Below are positions 3,460 to 59,605 of a stretch of 64,000 nt of DNA, one piece after another. Under the pieces are notes generated by a model. The model was not told the DNA's origin, made no database searches, and saw nothing but the letters and a program-made list of their open reading frames with translations. This DNA is from Alphaproteobacteria bacterium (GTDB lineage: Bacteria > Pseudomonadota > Alphaproteobacteria > MPNO01 > UBA830): NCBI GenBank assembly GCA_964291215.2, contig OZ219791.1, forward strand, positions 512,001-576,000, in the 5' to 3' direction. Made by a program: the position numbers and the translations under genes. The first letter of the stretch is position 1, and every line of letters starts with the position of its first letter.

Positions 3460-5197
3460 CACGGCGATCCCACGCCAGGTTTGTTGGAAGGGTCGGTTTC
3501 GCTTGTTCAGGATGATTCGCATTTTTGCCGGCTTTTTGTGAAGCGGCGCAGTATCCGTTGTCGTGGAGGCAGCGGATTTTTTTGAGACGACTCCGGAGGG
3601 TTTTGCGCTCCGGGATGTGGTTGTGCGCCTTGCGCGGCCTGATGTCGCTGGAATCGTGTCGTTGACCGTCATCCTTGGTTTCAAGCAGTTTGCCGGTCGA
3701 GGTCTGCGTGTTCACCTGGCGCGGGCGGTGGATTGGCGCTGCGGGCTGGCAGACGGGCGCCCTCAGCTGCGGGACCGTTGGATTGGCTGGCGCCGCGAGG
3801 AACAGTTCAGGCGGTTGCCGGGAACAACACGAGGTTTGTTGTTCTTGGTGGTCGTTTCCGGGCCTTGCCTCGTTTGCGTTGTCGCGGATGGTGCGGCGGC
3901 GACCGGGAGGCTGCCGTTGCTTGTTGGGGAGTCGTTTGTCTCGCCGACGAAGTTCAGCGGCACCATGTACAAGGCGGCGAACCGGGAGTGCGTTGGCAGG
4001 AGCCATGCGCGCGCCAGCGGGCGCCGACCGGGGAGGCGAAGGATCTTTACGTGTTTCCGCTGCGTCGCGATGTCGGCTGCGGGATCGTTCGCCGCTTCCT
4101 GTGGCGTGGGAGTTGCGGGCGCCGCTGGTCGGCGCAGGAGTTGCGCTCGATTTATCAGCGGCGCTTTCCGGCGCGCGCAGGGGCATCGCCTCGGTACTGT
4201 GCGTGATGGCGCGGCTTGCGAACCGGCGCGGTGGCGCACTACGCGATGACGCAGAAAGAGCTGGAGCGGCGTGGAAGAACAGGGACAAGCCGGTCTCCAC
4301 CGTGCACCGGGTGCTACCGACCCGGGATGGATCGAGGATGCGGCGCGCAGCCGCAGGTCGGCAACGCGGTCGACGGCAAGCGCACCGGCGAGGATCATTA
4401 CGAGACGGCCTCGCTGGCCGGTATTCGATCCTCAACTGTCACGACGGGGAGATCGCTGCCGTCCACGCCGCGACGGCGTTGGCCGTCTGCTCACCCTCGA
4501 CGCGCTCCACACCACCCGCGAGGCTGATCGTCGAGACCCATCGCGCGGACTGATGGTCAAGGGCAACGCACCTTCGAGAGCATCAACTGGAAGACCGCGA
4601 GCGCTACAGCGAAAAGCCCGCGCATGGCCGCCAGCGCACCATCTTCACCCCGCTGGCGAAGATGATCAACTAGTCAAGCAGATCTTCCGCGTCACCCGGC
4701 ACGTCGAATTCAGGAAAACCGAACACGCCATGACCTCGGTCGAACGCGCCTCGCCGCAACAGCTGCTCGCATGGAATCGCGGACACCGGGTAGTCGAGAG
4801 CCATCACCACATACCCACCTTCCGCGAAGACGACTCCATGCTCCGAACGCGCCCGCAAACAACGCGATCACCCTCGTAATCGCCGTCATCATCCACAACA
4901 AGCGTAAGCTGCGCAAACCCTTCAACAGCTTCGTCGACGCCCGCCATGCCGACAAGCGCAGGCAGGTCCTGCACGCAATCACAAGACCAGGCTGACCGCG
5001 CCTCTCTCCCCGACAGAAATCGCAAGCTTTCGAGCCCGGCAACCAAGGCCTCTCGCTCGCCCCGGATACGCCGACCAATCGCGCCCCGCGCCGCAACAGC
5101 GCGTCAGCAAATCTCAAAATCGCAGCCTCGAACGCGTCGACCCGCGCCGCGATCAGGACTCCGATCACATCACATCAACAAGCATGGGATCACCTTG
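3460..5197 (+). mobile_element. Degenerate ISAs1-family element with N-terminal DUF4338 (DruA-like) domain, copy A
   Basis: Ends CACGGCGATCCCACGC / GCATGGGATCACCTTG (imperfect TIR). Frame-broken peptides GFKQFAGRGLR..RDRWIGWRREEQF..ESFVSPTKFSGTMYKAAN (DUF4338-like) and LLAWNRGH.VVESHHH..TFREDDS (ISAs1-like). Near-identical copy at 54765-59409. Confidence 0.75.
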
Positions 5198-6615
5198 ATC
5201 TGTCGGGCTTGCCGGCTGGGGTTCTCGAGGCACTGACGGGGTTGGCGGCCGTGTGCCGTGCGGCGCTTGCCTCGGAACCCTGTCCGGCGGCGTTCGAGGA
5301 GGTGGAGCGGCGAGTTCGGGAGGGCGTGAACGTGCTGGGCTGCGCGGTGCTGGGGTCGTGGATCGAGCGCCTTGACGACGGGGCGGGTCGAACGGGCCGG
5401 GCAGCGGCGGTTCCGTGTGGCGGCGACGCCGAAGACGATCATGGGCACGCTCGGCCCGGTGACCTACAGGCGGGCGCGCTATCGCCACGGCGTGGGTGGC
5501 CCCTCGTTCGTGCCGGTGGACGAGAGCCTGGGGCTGGTGAACGACTGGCTGACGCGCCCGGCCGCGCGGCTCGGGCTGATGATGATGGGCCATTGCACGG
5601 CGCGGGAAGCGGAGGCGTTCTTCTCGGAGATGGGCGCCATGGCGCCGTCCGCGAGCACGCTGCAACGGCTCGTCCGGACCATGCATGAGCGCTGGGAAGG
5701 CCTCGGACCGCAGGCGCTGGAGAGTATCCGCGACAGGGAGGACATCCCGCCCGAGGCGGTCAGCGCCTCGGTCTCGCTGGACGGCGTGATGGTGGCGTTG
5801 CGCGCCGGCGAGGACGGGCGCGACGAGGCCTGCTGGCGCGAGGCCGCCTGCGGCACGGTCTCCTTCCACGGCCGGGAAGGCGAACGGCTCAAGACCCTCT
5901 ATCTCGCCCGTATGCCCGAGAGCGGCAAGCGCACGCTGAAGGCCCAGCTCGCAAGCGAGATCGCGCATATCCGCCACGCGCGCCCCGATATCGCGGTCGC
6001 TGCGCTCGCCAGAGCCTGCCCCTGCGAAGGCGGGGGGCGCCCCCGACAACCGGACCTTCCTGGAGAGCCTCTCGCCCGAGGCCGTCGACTTCTGGCACGC
6101 CTGCGAGCATCTTCGCACAGCCTCCGACCATGCCGTCGATCCCCGCTGGTTCGAGGCTTACCGCCATACCCTGCGACACGACCCGCACGGCAGCGCCAAG
6201 GTGATTCGGGCGCTGCGCTACCTGCGCGACAAGGCAGGCAGCAACCGCACCGCGCGCCCCGCCATCGAGCGCGAACTCGCCTTCTTCCGCAAGCACCGCA
6301 AGCGCATGCGATACCGCAACCTCAGCGACCGGGGCATCACCATCGGCTCCGGCGTTGTCGAGGCCGCAAACAAAACCCTCGTCACACAGAGGATGAAGCG
6401 CTCCGGCATGCGATGGCGCATCCACGGCGGCCAGGCCGTCCTCACCGTCCGCGCCCTCATCAAATCCGGACGCTTCGACCGCGCATGGAATGCCCTCATG
6501 AGCGATGCCGATACCCCCGCAAACGAAAACAAACGCACCGGAAACCAACACAGCCGCGCCGCATGAACCTTGACCCTCAGCCCAGCGCCATCATCGCCAT
6601 ACGAGATTCACGCCC
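5198..6615 (+). mobile_element. Degenerate ISKra4-family transposase, 5' truncated and frameshifted
   Basis: SLDGVMV, WREAACGTVSF, VDFWHACEHL and IGSGVVEAANKTLVTQRMKRSGMRW motifs spread over several frames. Confidence 0.75.
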
Positions 6616-26493: not shown

Positions 26494-27640
26494 CCGGTTG
26501 CATCTTGAGCCGAAGCACCGCCAGGTGCTGACAGCCCTGCTGCGGGAGCATTTGCCCGATGTCGAGGTATGGGCCTATGGCAGCCGCGTCAACGGGCGCA
26601 GCCATGACGGCAGTGATCTCGATCTGGTGCTGCGCGGGCCAGGACAGGGGGAGATCCCGGCCGACAAGTTGGCGGACTTCGAGGAGGCGGTGCGGGAATC
26701 GACCATTCCCTTCTTGGTCGAGGCCCGCGACTGGGCGCGCCTGCCGGAGCGGTTTCACCGGGAGATCGAGCGAGATCATGTGGTACTGGCTGATGCGGGG
26801 CGTTCTTCCATTACGTTTGGAACCGCGATATTGGGCAAAGTCACCAAGCCAACTCTGAGTAGTGTCGACAAAAAAAGTAAGAATTGAGAATTTACTGTAT
26901 CACTTTGCAACTATATGGATGTCTATTCAAGGAGCTTCATCCAAGCTGATATTCCATTCATGACGGCGACTGCTACAAGGAAAGAGATTGAACGGTGCAG
27001 ATTACAAACCGACGATGTCATTATTACTAAAGACTTGGAAAAACATGATGACATTGGAGTTCCCGCACTTGTCCGTGAGAATATCAAAGGGCTTGTGTGT
27101 GGGTATCACCTCGCGATTCTTCGCCCATCAAAAGATGAACTTCATGGACCTTATCTGTACTACGCACTTCAAACCGGAGAGGCTCGGCACCAATTTCACA
27201 CCTTCGCCAACGGTGTGACAAGATTTGGCCTGCGTAAAGACGATATTTTTCGTGTCAAGGTTCCCCTCCCTCCCCTCCCGAGCAGCGAGCGATTGCGGGC
27301 CTCCTCGGCGCGCTGGACGACAAGATCGAACTGAACCGGCGGATGAACCGGACGCTGGAGGCGATGGCGCGGGCGATCTTCCAGGACTGGTTCGTCGATT
27401 TCGGGCCGGTCCGGGCGAAGAGGGAAGGGCGTGCGCCCTATCTGTCTCCCGAAATATGGAAACTGTTTCCTGATGCGCCGGACGGCGAGGGCATTCCTTT
27501 CGGTTGGGAAGTTTCAGCAATCGGTAGAGAAGTCAATACTGTCGGAGGTGCTACCCCGAGCACGAAGGATCCCTCGTTTTGGGAAGGCGGCGAGTTCCAT
27601 TGGGCCACACCAAAGGATCTGTCGAAATTGTTGTCGCCGG
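26486..27640 (+). pseudogene. hsdS: Minimal nucleotidyltransferase (MNT) fused to type I HsdS; nonsense codon, frameshift and IS66 truncation
   Basis: YGSR..DGSDLDL MNT motif. TGA at 26885 is in frame with the HsdS-like TRD (VDKKSKN*EFTVSLCNYMDVY). Frameshift near 27280 restores [29 protein letters not shown]. Confidence 0.78.
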
Positions 27641-29195
27641 GTAACTGCTCACCCCCTGGTTCCGGCTTGATGTCGGGGTAGAGTAACGAACGGGTTTACG
27701 TGGAGATTTGACACTGCAGGCCGATTCGTTTAGTGGTGGTAATCGAGAACGACGGGGACCGCCAGTGGGCTACTTTGGATCGAAGGCGACGAGCGGGCTG
27801 TGCCAGCTGCTTCCGGGGCTCCAGCCCCCGCATGATCTGTATGTGGAAACGCATCTCGGAAGCGGCGCGCTAATGAAGCGCAAGGCCGGGTGATGGCGAC
27901 GGTCAACGCGGCGCGCGAGGAGTTCGAAGCGGCCAGGATCGCGGCGCTGCGTGCGGCCGGCAAGGTGGCGGAAGAGGCCGTCATCCGCGTCCTCGTCATC
28001 CTGCTCGACATCATCATCGTCGTCCTTCTGGAGAAGACCACGCACGAGCCGGAACTCCGGTCTGCCGCCGTCACAGACGGACAAGAGCGTGCCGGGAGCA
28101 ACGGCAAGGGCCCGAAGCCGAACCGGCAGATGGGCGACAACCTGCGCAAGACCATCGTCGAGGAGACGGTCGCGGTCGATGTCTGCGACGCCTGCGGCGC
28201 TGACGGCGTCGACCCCGTCGATCGGGAGCGCCGCACGACATCGTGTTCGAGGTCGTCGAGCGCCGCGCCGAGATCAAGGAATGCCCGAAGTGCAAGGCCC
28301 GGACCAAGGGCCGGTTTCCCGACAACATCCCGTGCAGTACGGCATCGGCATTCAGGCCCTCGTCATCAACCTGCTGGTCGCCCAGATGCTGTCCCTGCGC
28401 CGTGCCGTCGCGTTCGTGCAGGCGATCTCCGGCATCAAGCTCTCCGAGGCAACCTGCCTCGGCTATGCTTTCACGATGCGCTCGTGTCATGGGAGGAGGC
28501 CGCCGTGGCGCACCTCCTGCAACGCCCGATGTCGATGATTTCGGATCAACAGTAAGTGGCTCCATGTCGTGGGACCCTGACGTGCAAGTTCCCGCACCGC
28601 AAGCGCGGCCGGGAGGCAAGAGATCGGCATCATCCCGTGCTACAAGGGCGTCCTGGGCCTCGTACATGGGCCAGTGTAGCCACCAGCTGTGCGGCAGCCA
28701 CCTGCTGCGCGAACTGACCTTTGTCGTCGAGGCTACCGCGCGACTGATGAAGAGCCTGCTCCCTGCCACAAGGTCAACAAAAGCGCATCCAAGACCCTGA
28801 ACGACGCCGGGCGCAAGCGCTACCGCACCATCAGGGCGCCAGGGAACTGCCCGATATCCCGCCGAAAGGAAAACGTGGACGCAAGTCCGACGCGCACAAC
28901 CTGCACGAACGTCTCGTGAAACACGAAAACCTGCGCTTCACAGACGACCCCAACGTCAGCTTCACCAACAATGCCGGAGAACAGAAGATCAGGATGGCAA
29001 AGGTCAAGCTCAAGGTGTCTGGATGCTTCCGCTCCACGCAAAAGCATGGTGCCGGGGCTCAAGCTACCTCACCTCCATGGCCGCACTCGGCTACAACCCA
29101 CTCGTCGCCACCCAGATCGCCCTCGACGGAAAAGCCGCAGACATCATCAACGAGCACTATGGCCAATCAGAACCCAACAAGGGGTGAGTAGATAC
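27641..29195 (+). mobile_element. IS66-family (single-ORF type) element, degenerate, copy 1
   Basis: TIR GTAACTGCTCACCCC / GGGGTGAGTAGATAC; CPKC, HQLCGSHLLREL, FTNNAGEQKIRMAKVK. No TSD, implying an adjacent deletion. Confidence 0.85.
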
Positions 29196-54595: not shown

Positions 54596-56104
54596 GAAGC
54601 TTCGGTACTTTCTTAGAAATCGTCCGGAATCCGGTCCAAAACCGCACTGCGCCAGCGAGCGCACCCGCGCCGACTGACTGACGCCGTATGGCGTTCAGAT
54701 ATCCAGATTATCCTGAGCGCGTGGAAGCTAGATGGTTTGCTGCCAACTGTCAACCGCATCGGGCCACGGCGATCCCACGCCAGGTTTGTTGGAAGGGTCG
54801 GTTTTGCTTGTTCAGGATGATTCGCATTTTCGCTGACTTTTTGTGAAGCGGCGTAGTATCCGTTGTCGTGGGGGCAGCGGATTTTTTTGAGACGACTCCG
54901 GAGGGTTTTGAGCTCCGGGATGTGGTTGTGCGCCTTGCGCGGCCTGATGTCGCTGGAACCGTGTTGTTGACCGTATCTTGGTTTCAAGCAGTTTGCGGTC
55001 GAGGTCTGCGTGTTCACCTGGCGCGGGCGGTGGATTGGTGCTGCGGGCTGGCAGACGGGCGCCCTCAGCTGCGCACCCGTTGGCTGGCGCCGCGAGGAAC
55101 AGTTCAGGCGGTTGCCGGGAACAACACGAGGTTTGTTGTTCCTGGTGGTCGTTTCCGAGCCTTGCCTCGTTTGCGTTGTCGCGGATGGTGCGGCGGCGAC
55201 TGGGAGGCTGCGTACGGCCATCCGTTGCTTGTTGCGGAGTCGTTTGTCTCGCCGACGAAGTTCAGCGGCACCATGTACAAGGCGGCGAGCTGGGAGTGCG
55301 TTGGCAGGAGCCATGCGCGCGCCAGCGGGCGCCATAGCGACCGGCACGGGGAGGCGAAGGCTCTTTACGTGTTTCCGCTGCGTCGTGACGCGGGATCGTT
55401 CGCCGCTTCCTGTGGCGTGGGAGTTGCGGGCGCCGCTGGTCGGCGCAGGAGTTGCGCTCGATTTATCAGCGGCGCTTTCCGGCGTGCGCAGGGGCACCGC
55501 ATCGCCTCGGTGCTGTGCGTGATTTTGCTGGCTTGCGAACCGGCACGGTGCGGTTGCGGCGGCGCACTACGACGCAGAAGGAGCTGGAGCAGCATGGAAG
55601 AACAGGGACAAGCCGGTCTCCACCGTGCACCGGGTGCTGCAGAACACCGACCCGGGATGGATCGAGGATGCGGCGCGCAGCCGCAGGTCGGCAACGCGGT
55701 CGACGGCAAGCGCGGCCGCACCGGCGAGAATCATTACGAGACGGTCTCGCTGGCCGGTTTCGATCCTCAACTATCACGACGGGGAGATCGCTGCCGTCCA
55801 CGCCGCGTCGGCCGTCTGCTCACCCTCGACGCGCTCCACACCACCCGCGAGGCTGATCATCGAGACCCATCGCGCGAACTGATGGTCAAGGGCAATGCAC
55901 CTTCGAGAGAGCATCAACTGGAAGACCGCCAGCGCTACAACGAAAAGCCCGCGCATGGCCGCCAGCGCACCATCTTCACCCCGCTGGCGAAGATGATCAA
56001 CTAGCAGATCTTCCGCGTCACCCGGCGCGTCGAATTCAAGAAATCCAGAAAACGGACAACCGAATACGCCATGACCTTATATGACTAGGTTTTGTCCCCT
56101 TGAT

Positions 56105-57545
56105 GTATCTACTCACCCCTAGTTGGGTTCTGATTGGTCGTAGTGCTCGTTGATGATGTCTGCGGCTTTTCCGTCGAGGGCGATCTGGGTGGCGACGAGT
56201 GGGTTGTAGCCGAGTGCGGCCATGGAGGTAAGGTAGCTTGAGCCCCGGCACCATGCTTTTGCGTGGAGCGGAAGCATCCGGACACCTTGAGCTTTGCCAT
56301 CCTGATCTTCTGTTCTCCGGCATTGTTGGTGAAGCTGACGTCGGGGTCGTCTGTGAAGCGCAGGTTTTCGTGTTTCATGAGACGTTCGTGCAGGTTGTGC
56401 GCGTTTGCTATGCGTTTTCCTTTCGGCGGGATGTCGGGCAGTTCCTTGGCGCCCTGATGGTGCGCTTGCGCCCGGCCTCGTTCAGGGTCCTGGATGCGCT
56501 CTTGTTGATCTTGTGGCAGACCTCGCGGAGCAGGCTCTTCATCAGTCGCGCGGTAGCCTCGACGACGAAGGTCAGTTCGCGCAGCAGGTGGCTGCCGCTG
56601 GTGGCTACACTGCCATGTACGAGGCCCAGGACGCCCTTGTAGCACGGGCCGATCTCTTGCTTGCGGTGCGGGAACTTGCACGTCCCGACGACATGGAGCC
56701 ACTTGCTGTTGATCCGAAATCGTCGACATCGGGCGTTGCAGGAGGTGCGCCACGGCGGCCTCCTCCCATGACGCATCGTGAAAGCATAGCCGAGGCCTCG
56801 GAAAGCTTGATGCCGGAGATCGCCTGCACGAGCGCGACGGCGCAGGGACAGCATCCGGGCGACCAGCAGGTTGATGACGAGGGCTTGGATGCCGTACTGC
56901 ACGGGATGTTGTCGGGGAACCGGGCCTTGCACTTCGGGCATTCCTTGATCTCGGCGCGGCGCTCGACGACCTCGAACACGATGTCGTGCGGCGCTCCCGA
57001 TCGACGGGGCCGTCGGCGCCGCAGGCGTCGCAGGCCGCGACCGTCTCCTCGACGATGGTCTTGCGCAGGTTGTCGCCCATCTGCCGGTTCGGCTTCGGGC
57101 CGTTGCTCCCGGCACACTCTTGTCCGTCTGTGACGGCGGCAGACCGGAGTTCCGGCTCGTGCGTGGTCTTCTCCAGAAGGACGACGATGAGGATGACGAA
57201 GACGCGGATCACGGCCTCTTCCGCCACCTTGCCGGCCGCACGCAGCGCCTTGGCCGCTTCGAACTCCTCGCGCGCCGCGTTGACCGTCGCCATCACCCGG
57301 CCTTGCGCTTCATCAGCGCGCCGCCTCCGAGATGCGTTTTCACATACAGATCATGCGGGGGCTGGAGCCCCGGAAGCAGCTGGCACAGCCCGCTCGTCGC
57401 CTTCGATCCAAAGTAGCCCACTGGCGGTCCCCATCGTCCTCGATTACCACCACTAAACGAATCGGCCTGCAGTGTCAAATCTTCACGAAAACCCGTTCGT
57501 TGCTCTACCCCGACATCAAGCCGGAACCAGGGGGTGAGCAGTTAC
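56105..57545 (-). mobile_element. IS66-family element copy 2
   Basis: Inverted copy of 27641-29195 with a perfect 8-bp TSD CCCTTGAT (56097-56104, 57546-57553). Confidence 0.9.
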
Positions 57546-57625
57546 CCCTTGATGATGAAATCATCCACAGCAGTTGGGGGCGGGAAAATGTGGATCTGTG
57601 GGAGAGCTATGGTTGCAGAGAGATT

Positions 57626-57797
57626 CCGCTCCCCTGAGCGAACACGCACAGGGGAGCGGGGTGCGGGGATCAAACGATCTCCGCGGAGGTTGCCGTTTCG
57701 ACCTTGACAGGGCCGTGTCCGAGTGTGGTCGGCCAACCTCCCTTGACGTCCCTCGCATGGATGCTTGGGTTTGAACCCGTATCATCGTAAGGCGAGG
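57626..57797 (+). ncRNA. Putative IS110 bridge RNA
   Basis: 11-bp 5' hairpin, then two stems with internal loops. The second loop holds ATGGATGCT, identical to the element right end plus CT core. Confidence 0.65.
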
Positions 57798-59411
57798 AGC
57801 AAGGGACGATGGTCAAGATAGTAGCAGGGGTCAGCCAGTCTGGACATCTGGCGCATTGTTTTGCGAACGACGCCACGGGCAGGTGGCTTCGCGGCCTCGG
57901 GGTGAGCCGGGTGGTGGGCGACAGGCCGCTATCACCGCAAGGTTCACCAGTGTCTTCATGACCGGGGCTTCAAGGTTATTCTCGTCAACCCGTTGCGGGC
58001 TTCGCCGAGGCGATGGGCCAACCGCGTCGACGCCAAGATCGGCTGGGCGATCTTGAGCCTGTGGCTCCGCCTTCCTCAAGAGCCTGGAGGATCTCCTGGT
58101 GCCGCGCTTGTCGACGCGTGGCAGATGAGGAGGATGGCGAGACCGTCACAAGGGCCTCAGCGGCCGATCTCGATGACCGCATTGCCGGTGCGGCGATCAA
58201 AGCGGTGATCGCCGGTGATCCCGAGCAGAGCTACGCCATCCTGACCTCGATCCGGTGACCGCCGCGGCCCTTCTGGATGCCCGAACTCGGCAGCGTCGGC
58301 AGCCTTGATCGGGGTGGCGCCAACGACCACGGTGCTCGGGACATCCGTGGCGGGCGCCGAAGGCCACGTGATCTCCTGGCCGCAACCGGCACGCTTCAAC
58401 GCGGACCTGGTGCGCCTCAAGACTGCCGGCAAGCAAGGTCGCGATTGTCGCCGTGATGCGCAAGCTCTGGCGAACACCTTGCTGCGACAGCAGCGTTGCC
58501 TGAAGCACCGGTGAGTGAGCGAAGGAGACACGGCCCTGCCGAGAGGCAGCGCCGCGCGCCGCAAGGCCCCCACCTCCACCACCGAAAGCCCCATCGTTCC
58601 CGTGCGCAACGCTGGTGCGATGCGGTGGCTCGGTGCGGTGCAGGAGCACTATCGGGACTGTCTCGACAGTCTCCCTCTACGACACGACTTGGGGAGAATG
58701 TCTGCAGATCATCGTCGAGGTCGACATCAAGGAGATCGAACCGCCTTGGGACACCTGGAACCCGGACGGTCACGTGCCCGGGGACGGCAAGGTAGCCGCG
58801 TTCACGTGACCAATGGACGGCAACCCGCCGCCGGGACCACAAGCTTCATGTCGCCTCGCTCGCAGAGCAAACCCCACACCGCTTGTGGACAACCACAGAA
58901 AACATCACCACAGACACCCGCAAAAACCTTGCCAAGAAACATGGATGCTCGGTCGAACGCGCCTCGCCGCAACAGCTGCTCGCATGGAATCGCGGACACT
59001 GGGTAGTCGAGAGCCACCATCATGTCCGCGATGCCACCTTCCGCGAAGACGACTCCATGCTCCGAACGCGCCCGCAAACAACGCGATCACCCTCGCAATC
59101 ATCATCCGCAACAAACGCAAGCTGCCCAAACCCTTCAACAGCTTCGTCGACACCACTATGTCGACAAGCGCAAGCAGGTCCTGCACGCAATCACAAGACC
59201 AGGCTGACCGCGCCTCTCTCCCCGACAGAAACCGCAAGCTTTCGAGCCCGGCAACCAAGGCCTCTCGCTCGCCCCGGATACGCCGACCAATCGCGCCCCG
59301 CGCCGCAACAGCGCGTCAGAAAATCTCAAAATCGCAGCCTCGAACGCGTCGACCCGCGCCACGATCAGGACTCCGATCACATCACATCAACAAGCATGGG
59401 ATCACCTTGGC

Positions 59412-59605
59412 CAGGACTTTCCCACGCTGTGGTTGGTGTTTTGAATGACCGCTGAACGGGGCACAAATTTCCGCATTCTTGCCAGGTTTTCCGGCTGCGG
59501 CGACCCGTAGACGGCCCCGCGGCCAGAAAACCCGACAGGCTTGGGCCTGGGCAGCCTCTTTCCATCAGCAGTCGGCAAGATCGAATGCAGCGTGGGATAG
59601 TCCTG
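59412..59605. mobile_element. MITE with ISAs1-type ends
   Basis: TIR CAGGACTTTCCCACGCTG / CAGCGTGGGATAGTCCTG. Confidence 0.8.

Follow-up and report, generated by a model that had tools for sequence, protein, structure and literature searches.

The window, i.e. the whole stretch of 64,000 nucleotides that was analysed, contains a decayed insertion sequence which, by every feature testable at the sequence level, belongs to the IS621-type IS110 group (Table 1). It lies in an abundant host element that combines DruA/DUF4338 with an ISAs1 transposase and is seen in the window at 3460-5200 and 54760-59400. Both domains are found together in one 586-aa frame of a member of this family (G000:C2:356634-358190, where G000 is the source genome), and the right flank of the insertion matches the ISAs1 profile (window 58946-59071). 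A Pfam search of the window's own fragments and an NCBIfam search of the host-element frames gave no match, and the host element had no match among plasmids. The filled junctions are found at 56071 and 58941, and CT occurs once in the empty site 4730, i.e. there is no target duplication; the empty target that the original prediction placed at ~4730 is confirmed, in the second copy of the host repeat. A precise empty site with a 2-nt overlap is also present in the public runs X2 and X5.

Table 1. Positions of the features of the IS110 element and its target in the window
Feature	Position	Strand	Remarks
Decayed IS110 element	56078-58949	+	CT core on both sides; bridge RNA region in left end
Left target half ATGAC and CT core (56076-56077)	56071..56077	+	Filled junction, compared with empty site 4730
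Left-end start: right-donor bases, predicted -10 box TATGAC (56080-56085)	56078..56104	+	
First copy of the 8-bp IS66 target duplication	56097-56104		Closes the left-end start segment
Decayed IS66-family element between -10 box and bridge RNA	56105..57545	-	8-bp duplication
5' hairpin of the predicted bridge RNA	57623..57662	+	Fold; two pairs with two-sided change
Second 5' hairpin	57663..57684	+	Fold; one-sided changes only
Target-binding loop: stem, left target guide 57696-57704, right target guide 57717-57723, handshake bases 57724-57725	57685..57741	+	
Donor-binding loop: left donor guide 57757-57765, right donor guide 57787-57791, handshake 57792-57793	57748..57807	+	
Wrecked IS110 recombinase gene (end approximate)	57809..58514	+	19 frameshifting deletions
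Remnant of the ~95-aa passenger ORF (limits approximate)	58520..58760	+	Conserved in intact relatives
Right end: predicted -35 TTGCCA (58929-58934), left donor ATGGATG (58941-58947), CT core (58948-58949)	58929..58949	+	
Right target half CGGTC	58950..58954	+	Within the ISAs1-type transposase gene of the host repeat
Empty target	4730..4741	+	In second copy of the host repeat (DruA/DUF4338 and ISAs1 element)

The IS66-type element begins 19 nt behind the predicted -10 box, and its inverted sibling at 27639-29195 gives NF033517 matches in a profile search. It seems to carry on the minus strand (57293-57478) a decayed passenger which, from its motifs, we take to be DNA adenine methyltransferase-like; a profile search of this passenger gave no match. 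A related repeat is present in G041 in thirteen copies (loci L155-L167), which start with 55 nt left over from the IS110 left end. On a contig of run X2 the IS66-type ends (57545/56105) are joined with 6 letters between them, a possible circle or tandem junction. For the IS110 recombinase, fragments of a sibling copy match both PF01548 and PF02371 over the cut-off.

The segment 57623-57807 very probably encodes a bridge RNA of the IS110 group, as predicted from its fold and from the guides that it presents. The 213-nt region folds with a z-score of -5.34, and none of 200 shuffled sequences was as good. With the CT core and four readable guides, this bears out the IS110 bridge-RNA-like structure of the original prediction, all of whose motifs (hairpin, target stem, guides, right end) were found in place. 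The arms of the 5' hairpin are 57626-57636/57649-57659, and the target stem (57685-57692/57734-57741) encloses TTTCGACCT (57696-57704) and CCGAG (57719-57723). In the donor loop, ATGGATGCT at 57757-57765 is identical over 9 nt to the right end plus core (58941-58949), as had been claimed, and GTAAG (57787-57791) forms the right donor guide. The extent given originally, 57626..57797, holds for the core of the RNA; it missed the second hairpin, and the predicted RNA runs to about 57807. No matching family was found in Rfam, where three chance matches lay far below the gathering scores. The guides precede the recombinase gene and are not at the right end, where the guide RNA of IS1111-type elements is located.

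Searches with the C-terminal fragment of a sibling copy retrieved 315-aa proteins of at most 83% identity; such intact homologues match NF033542 and the structure of IS621 (8wt6, E 2e-28) and, as a distant protein match, that of IS622/ISCro4 (PDB 9t56, E 5e-24). The common left end, the ~95-aa passenger ORF and the right end are found at 31 loci in alphaproteobacterial metagenome-assembled genomes. The passenger ORF stands behind the recombinase in all intact relatives (e.g. L031:2481-2768); it matched no Pfam family and was recognised only by clusters of hypothetical proteins, below threshold. In one homologue (L023:~1200-1285) the left end is interrupted, upstream of the bridge RNA, by 60 inserted nt.

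The homologous ends, which were expected to keep the fold and to carry guides covarying with the target, do both. The left end of the intact homologue L031 folds with a z-score of -7.5. The shared fold of 11 left ends (L040, with unrelated upstream DNA, L034, with a loop deletion, the truncated L029 and the window copy were left out of the alignment) opens with two 5' hairpins, followed by a target stem that has two internal loops and holds an inner hairpin, and then by a donor stem. In this alignment 98.6% of the cells are paired, and two-sided change is observed in 5 of the 63 pairs, three of them in the target stem; the shuffle controls of the alignment overstate the result, since the structure was derived from the same, related sequences. 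The conserved donor stem is GTCCCTCGC-GTCCT/AGGA-GCAAGGGAC, and its pairing is without covariation support because the stem is invariant in the homologues. The CCTCGC/GCGAGG stem, originally taken for the donor stem, is present as a motif but is not the donor stem of the family: its two inner pairs are broken in 4 and 3 of the 11 homologues, the handshake dinucleotide accounts for its GC, and in the window copy only a 7-nt deletion lets it close on the donor guide. Even in the intact homologue, the target guides are predicted to be only modestly unpaired (0.66 and 0.37).

When the two ends are joined, TTGCCA (58929) is placed 17 nt before TATGAC (56080), in agreement with the circle junction proposed from TTGCCA. 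The 17-nt spacer is kept in all 24 homologue loci with both ends, and TATGAC in 23 of them. From this geometry a sigma70-like promoter is predicted across the joined ends; in the window copy the IS66 insertion separates it from the RNA. No circle joint was found in the assembly or among the run-contig matches listed, and contigs drop rare forms. The right donor guide follows the left end: it reads ACAAG in 4 of 4 copies whose left end is TGTAT, and ATAAG or GTAAG in 30 of the 37 TATAT left ends. The Watson-Crick pairs of the handshake bases in the homologue loci number 0.6 before and 2.7 after the exchange, with higher pairing after the exchange in 21 of 23 loci, which are not independent. For the window copy there are no pairs before the exchange, and one Watson-Crick and two wobble pairs after it. 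A handshake asymmetry favouring insertion is described for IS621 (PMC11208158; PMC13626964).

The donor loop of the bridge RNA would thus spell the element's own two ends, and the target loop a 12-base landing site of five bases, CT, and five bases. In the intact relatives, the RNA would be transcribed from the promoter formed when the element ends join, and it would guide a DEDD/serine recombinase so that the element is inserted at CT.

The target guides were compared with the insertion sites both across genomes and within the source genome. Across genomes, 23 of the 31 homologue loci were parsed (the target guides of the other 8 were unparsed); the left guide matches the left flank at 70 of 119 positions (48.5 after shuffling), and the right guide matches the right flank at 81 of 102 (37.5 after shuffling). 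With one site per guide, the worst p values are 0.012 (left) and 0.001 (right). The source genome gives 66 left-end matches, of which 61 copies were parsed and 5 had unparsed guides. These 61 copies are about 95% identical and have 18 guide pairs by full sequence, or 16 by the ten effective bases. Compared with their own flanks, they match at 175 of 280 positions on the left (null 133.5) and 284 of 399 on the right (221.5); the unique pairs match at 91/154 (73.0) and 118/175 (92.2), respectively. In each test none of 20,000 shuffles was as high, p-values which overstate the significance because the copies are not independent. Most of the sites lie within repeats, and one deletion spanning the left junction is common to nine copies.

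The matching bases are the five on either side of CT, and the first two bases of the left guide are unmatched to the flanks; as read from these comparisons, the effective target is 5+CT+5. The ten effective guide positions are also the most variable of the element (diversity 0.29 vs 0.04-0.06), taking the top five of 1172 windows. A tree built from the CDS and right end, with the RNA excluded, gives two clades and basal copies, each clade having its own site class, and the own guide beats the guide of the other clade in 14/14 and 17/17 copies. Within the larger clade, the left -4 position tracks the site in 15 of 19 cases (p 0.023), and the right +4 base fails to do so (20/33, p 0.42). Since the guide pairs track the insertion sites in G000 and across genomes, the register of the target loop, about which doubt had been expressed, is correct. 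In G041, G047 and G048, each variant of the element has a single guide pair. The 14 short left-end matches of G041 were rejected as mini-elements, as all of those among the matches listed continue into another repeat.

The original claim that the guides match the element's own donor and target stands fully for the donor and in part for the target. The target predicted from the guides of the window copy is TCGAC-CT-CGGAC, and sites of this class are taken by other copies. The copy itself sits in ATGAC-CT-CGGTC, which its own guides fit at 7 of the 10 positions outside the core; for the sibling guide TTGAC/CGGTC the fit to this site is 9 of 10. All the copies share one donor sequence, and the RNA of a sibling could also deliver a circle. 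The position of the window copy in a site that fits the sibling guide better is likely due to such shared-donor delivery and to recombination between copies. The sister copy C2_409850 has the same IS66 junction as the window copy (2 of 208 IS66 ends), keeps only 91 nt of IS66, and diverges from the window copy near the right end. This arrangement in the closest sister shows that copies have recombined, though not in which direction.

Compared with L031, the window copy has 50 deletions, of which 5 are in the left end and 19 are frameshifting. Three of them lie inside the RNA, in the target and donor stems or the inner hairpin: a 5-nt deletion damages the inner hairpin of the target loop, and a 7-nt deletion affects the 5' arm of the donor stem. 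With these three deletions, the RNA of the window copy is likely crippled. The decay of the recombinase noted in the original prediction extends to the codons of D9, E51, D93 and S232, all four of which are hit; these residues match D11, E60, D102 and S241 of IS621, each described as essential (PMC11208158).

As far as the cited papers describe them, IS621 (PMC11208160, PMC11208158, PMC13626964) and the window family have in common the CT core without target duplication, the RNA in the left end, the sigma70-like promoter across the joined ends (predicted here), the target loop followed by the donor loop, the four guides with a 9-nt left donor guide and, in the intact relatives of the window family, the DEDD and serine catalytic set. 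They differ in the target, which in the window family is 5+CT+5, with a right guide of 7 nt including the core, and in IS621 has 9 non-core positions; longer right guides are already noted in some IS621 orthologues (PMC11208160). The window family has two 5' hairpins, whereas one is described for IS621, and, unlike in IS621, its right end is longer than its left owing to the ~95-aa passenger ORF. IS110 elements are known to carry cargo (10.64898/2026.08.14.744561). A further difference from IS621 is that all the G000 copies are dead, one lineage having 16 target-guide pairs. IS622/ISCro4, as described (10.1101/2025.05.14.653916), resembles the window family in the CT core, in having a target and a donor loop with handshake guides, and in the extended right guide; it reads 14 bases, whereas the flanks of the window family match about 12. 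In Pseudomonas putida, movement by the transposase in trans is proposed for MITEPpu9/ssr9, enzyme-less IS110-family modules described together with ISPpu9 (PMC12288879), and we infer the same here. In contrast to MITEPpu9 as reported there, the putative hitchhikers of the window family are full-length, with a shredded gene, an IS621-type left-end RNA, and varied target guides.

The manner in which the enzyme-dead copies spread has two main explanations, of which movement in trans is somewhat favoured on the pattern of deletions and flanks. No intact recombinase was found among the G000 copies; the 60 aligned copies (63 less 3 that were excluded when deletions were analysed) have at least 7 frameshifts each, and none has all five catalytic codons. 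Copies at unrelated, guide-matched sites are separated by 2-8 substitutions in ~1390 nt and share 30-39 deletions, and the three near-identical copies that were checked are without D9, E51 and D93. In G048, 9 copies have one guide pair, their N-terminal matches lie in 112-aa frames in 9 of 9 cases, and no intact copy was found. In all seven copies compared (L042-L047, L053) one and the same 7-nt frameshift disrupts the RuvC domain; these copies are 1-7 substitutions apart, with no other indels and five different left flanks, and occupy several sites that match the guides. IS621 is reported to function with the recombinase on another plasmid and the RNA in trans (PMC11208160), and donor-only excision, with the donor loop being sufficient, is also reported (10.64898/2026.08.31.748434). 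It is these near-identical dead copies at unrelated sites, the G048 pattern, the trans activity of IS621 and the donor-loop-only excision that favour movement in trans. The other explanation, clearly less probable yet to be taken seriously, is that the insertions were made while the element was intact, and that the deletions were spread later by gene conversion or crossing-over, also overwriting the guide of the window copy. The copies do recombine, so conversion can also spread deletions: failures of the four-gamete test occur at all distances, among deletions in 12-19% of the pairs and among SNPs in 22-42%, the SNP share rising with distance. Only one deletion is present in 60 of 60 copies, the intact catalytic codons are patchy in different clades, and C2_409850, which shares the IS66 junction and then diverges, looks like a recombination tract. 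Against conversion, the frameshifts and the loss of D9 are found in 50-58 of 60 copies, in both clades and the basal copies, while the guide-site matching between clades is complete; the single frameshift common to the G048 copies, with no other indels among seven, also speaks against it.

Movement in trans calls for a helper, and no intact helper of the window copy's clade was found in G000 or G048. Two intact IS110 elements of another clade are present in the source genome (L001 and L002, at G000:C1:883.4-885.0 kb and 480.6-482.2 kb, with 431 and 429 aa and a long conserved region downstream of the gene); they were rejected as helpers at 24% identity. The left end had no DNA match in 40 related genomes, and one same-genus genome carries a 54%-identical recombinase. 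The enzyme might have been borrowed from an intact copy that is now lost or unassembled. The guides may have diversified by point changes during copy-out and re-insertion, much of this after the recombinase gene broke; with the borrowed enzyme included, we consider this course of events slightly more probable than its opposite. That the dead copies moved as guide-carrying parasites, with single-base changes in the target loop opening new sites stepwise, mostly inside mobile elements, appears to us an evenly balanced proposition.

The remaining explanations are all improbable to different degrees. The guides could have been rewritten after insertion to match the flanks, the specificities being learned from off-target landings. 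At one host site three copies have neither, one or both guides matching, at another site a matching right guide is seen in one of two copies, and variability along the element peaks at the guide positions. The same series is expected from recombination with the abundant sibling guide, however, and 26 of 37 copies still have at least one mismatch to their own site. We know of no mechanism by which guides are rewritten from the target, and consider this reading unlikely. Still less credible is that the guide mosaic and the deletions are artefacts of assembly or polishing, for which the repeat content of this metagenome assembly might speak (repeats of at least 5 copies make up 24% of the genome). 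Artefacts would not produce guide-flank matches, the nearby core genes are intact, and the guide variants as well as the long and short alleles recur in contigs of the public runs X1-X3 (these come from one study, and one of them may be the source). The structure might also be a folded 5' leader that controls translation of the recombinase, with the guide matches arising by chance. Its last stem stops 1 nt short of the start codon and covers the ribosome-binding site, and a structured leader is reported to inhibit translation in ISPpu9 (PMC12288879). A leader role may coexist with guidance but cannot explain the covariation of the loops with the flanks, within and across genomes, and as a sole explanation it is the least plausible of all. 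Taken as a whole, an IS110-group bridge RNA with 5+CT+5 targeting, guide diversification and spread in trans is the best explanation, and a probable one.

The deletions are not confined to the IS110 element, each copy of which has about 42. Deletion-scarred dead mobile DNA is seen in the window at, e.g., 54700-59500, 3460-5200 and 27639-29195. In 1796 alignments of sampled repeat regions 67% of the gaps are 5-7 nt long, with a small peak at 12-13, and at least one such gap per kb is found in 154 of 177 sampled regions. Microhomology of at least 3 nt flanks 28% of 1381 events (7% expected), and no strong motif beyond G or GY microhomology was found at the deletion sites. In sampled BLAST alignments the deletions per 100 substitutions increase from 3.7 in two-copy to 22 in 30+-copy DNA; high-copy repeats as the sole setting were rejected, as the pattern is also present in some two-copy duplicates. 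A search of the genome for possible causes found no Piwi, no Ku and no TnpB over the cut-off. Two CRISPR arrays are present (G000:C1:574174-581216 and C2:2068488-2069571, with 96 and 17 repeats), and a Cas1 (L133) lies within a 599-aa frame, possibly a fusion; the 111 spacers gave three weak self matches in the genome, none in repeats. MutS is present, but it is described as recognising loops only up to four nucleotides (PMC8235422), and our best guess is therefore that the deletions are products of slippage or end joining which escape mismatch repair. For bacterial pseudogenes, deletions are described as following a power law in which multiples of three are favoured (PMC6054270); the 5-7-nt spectrum of this genome departs from that power law, and no report of such a spectrum was found among the papers listed in literature searches.

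The RNA itself is a further example of the system described in 2024. What adds value is that guide and target change together among 61 copies in one genome, whereas the published covariation of guides is drawn across thousands of orthologues (PMC11208160). In the literature outside subscription papers and the supplements of PMC11208160, no paper on a within-genome radiation of guides was found. The series offers ready-made natural guide/target pairs with their mismatch tolerances, and a compact recombinase of 315 aa, with a predicted 5+CT+5 target, is available from the intact relatives. If the dead copies did move as guide-carrying parasites, they would form a near-isogenic natural series of 16 guide-target pairs in which the evolution of RNA-guided recombinase specificity could be followed.
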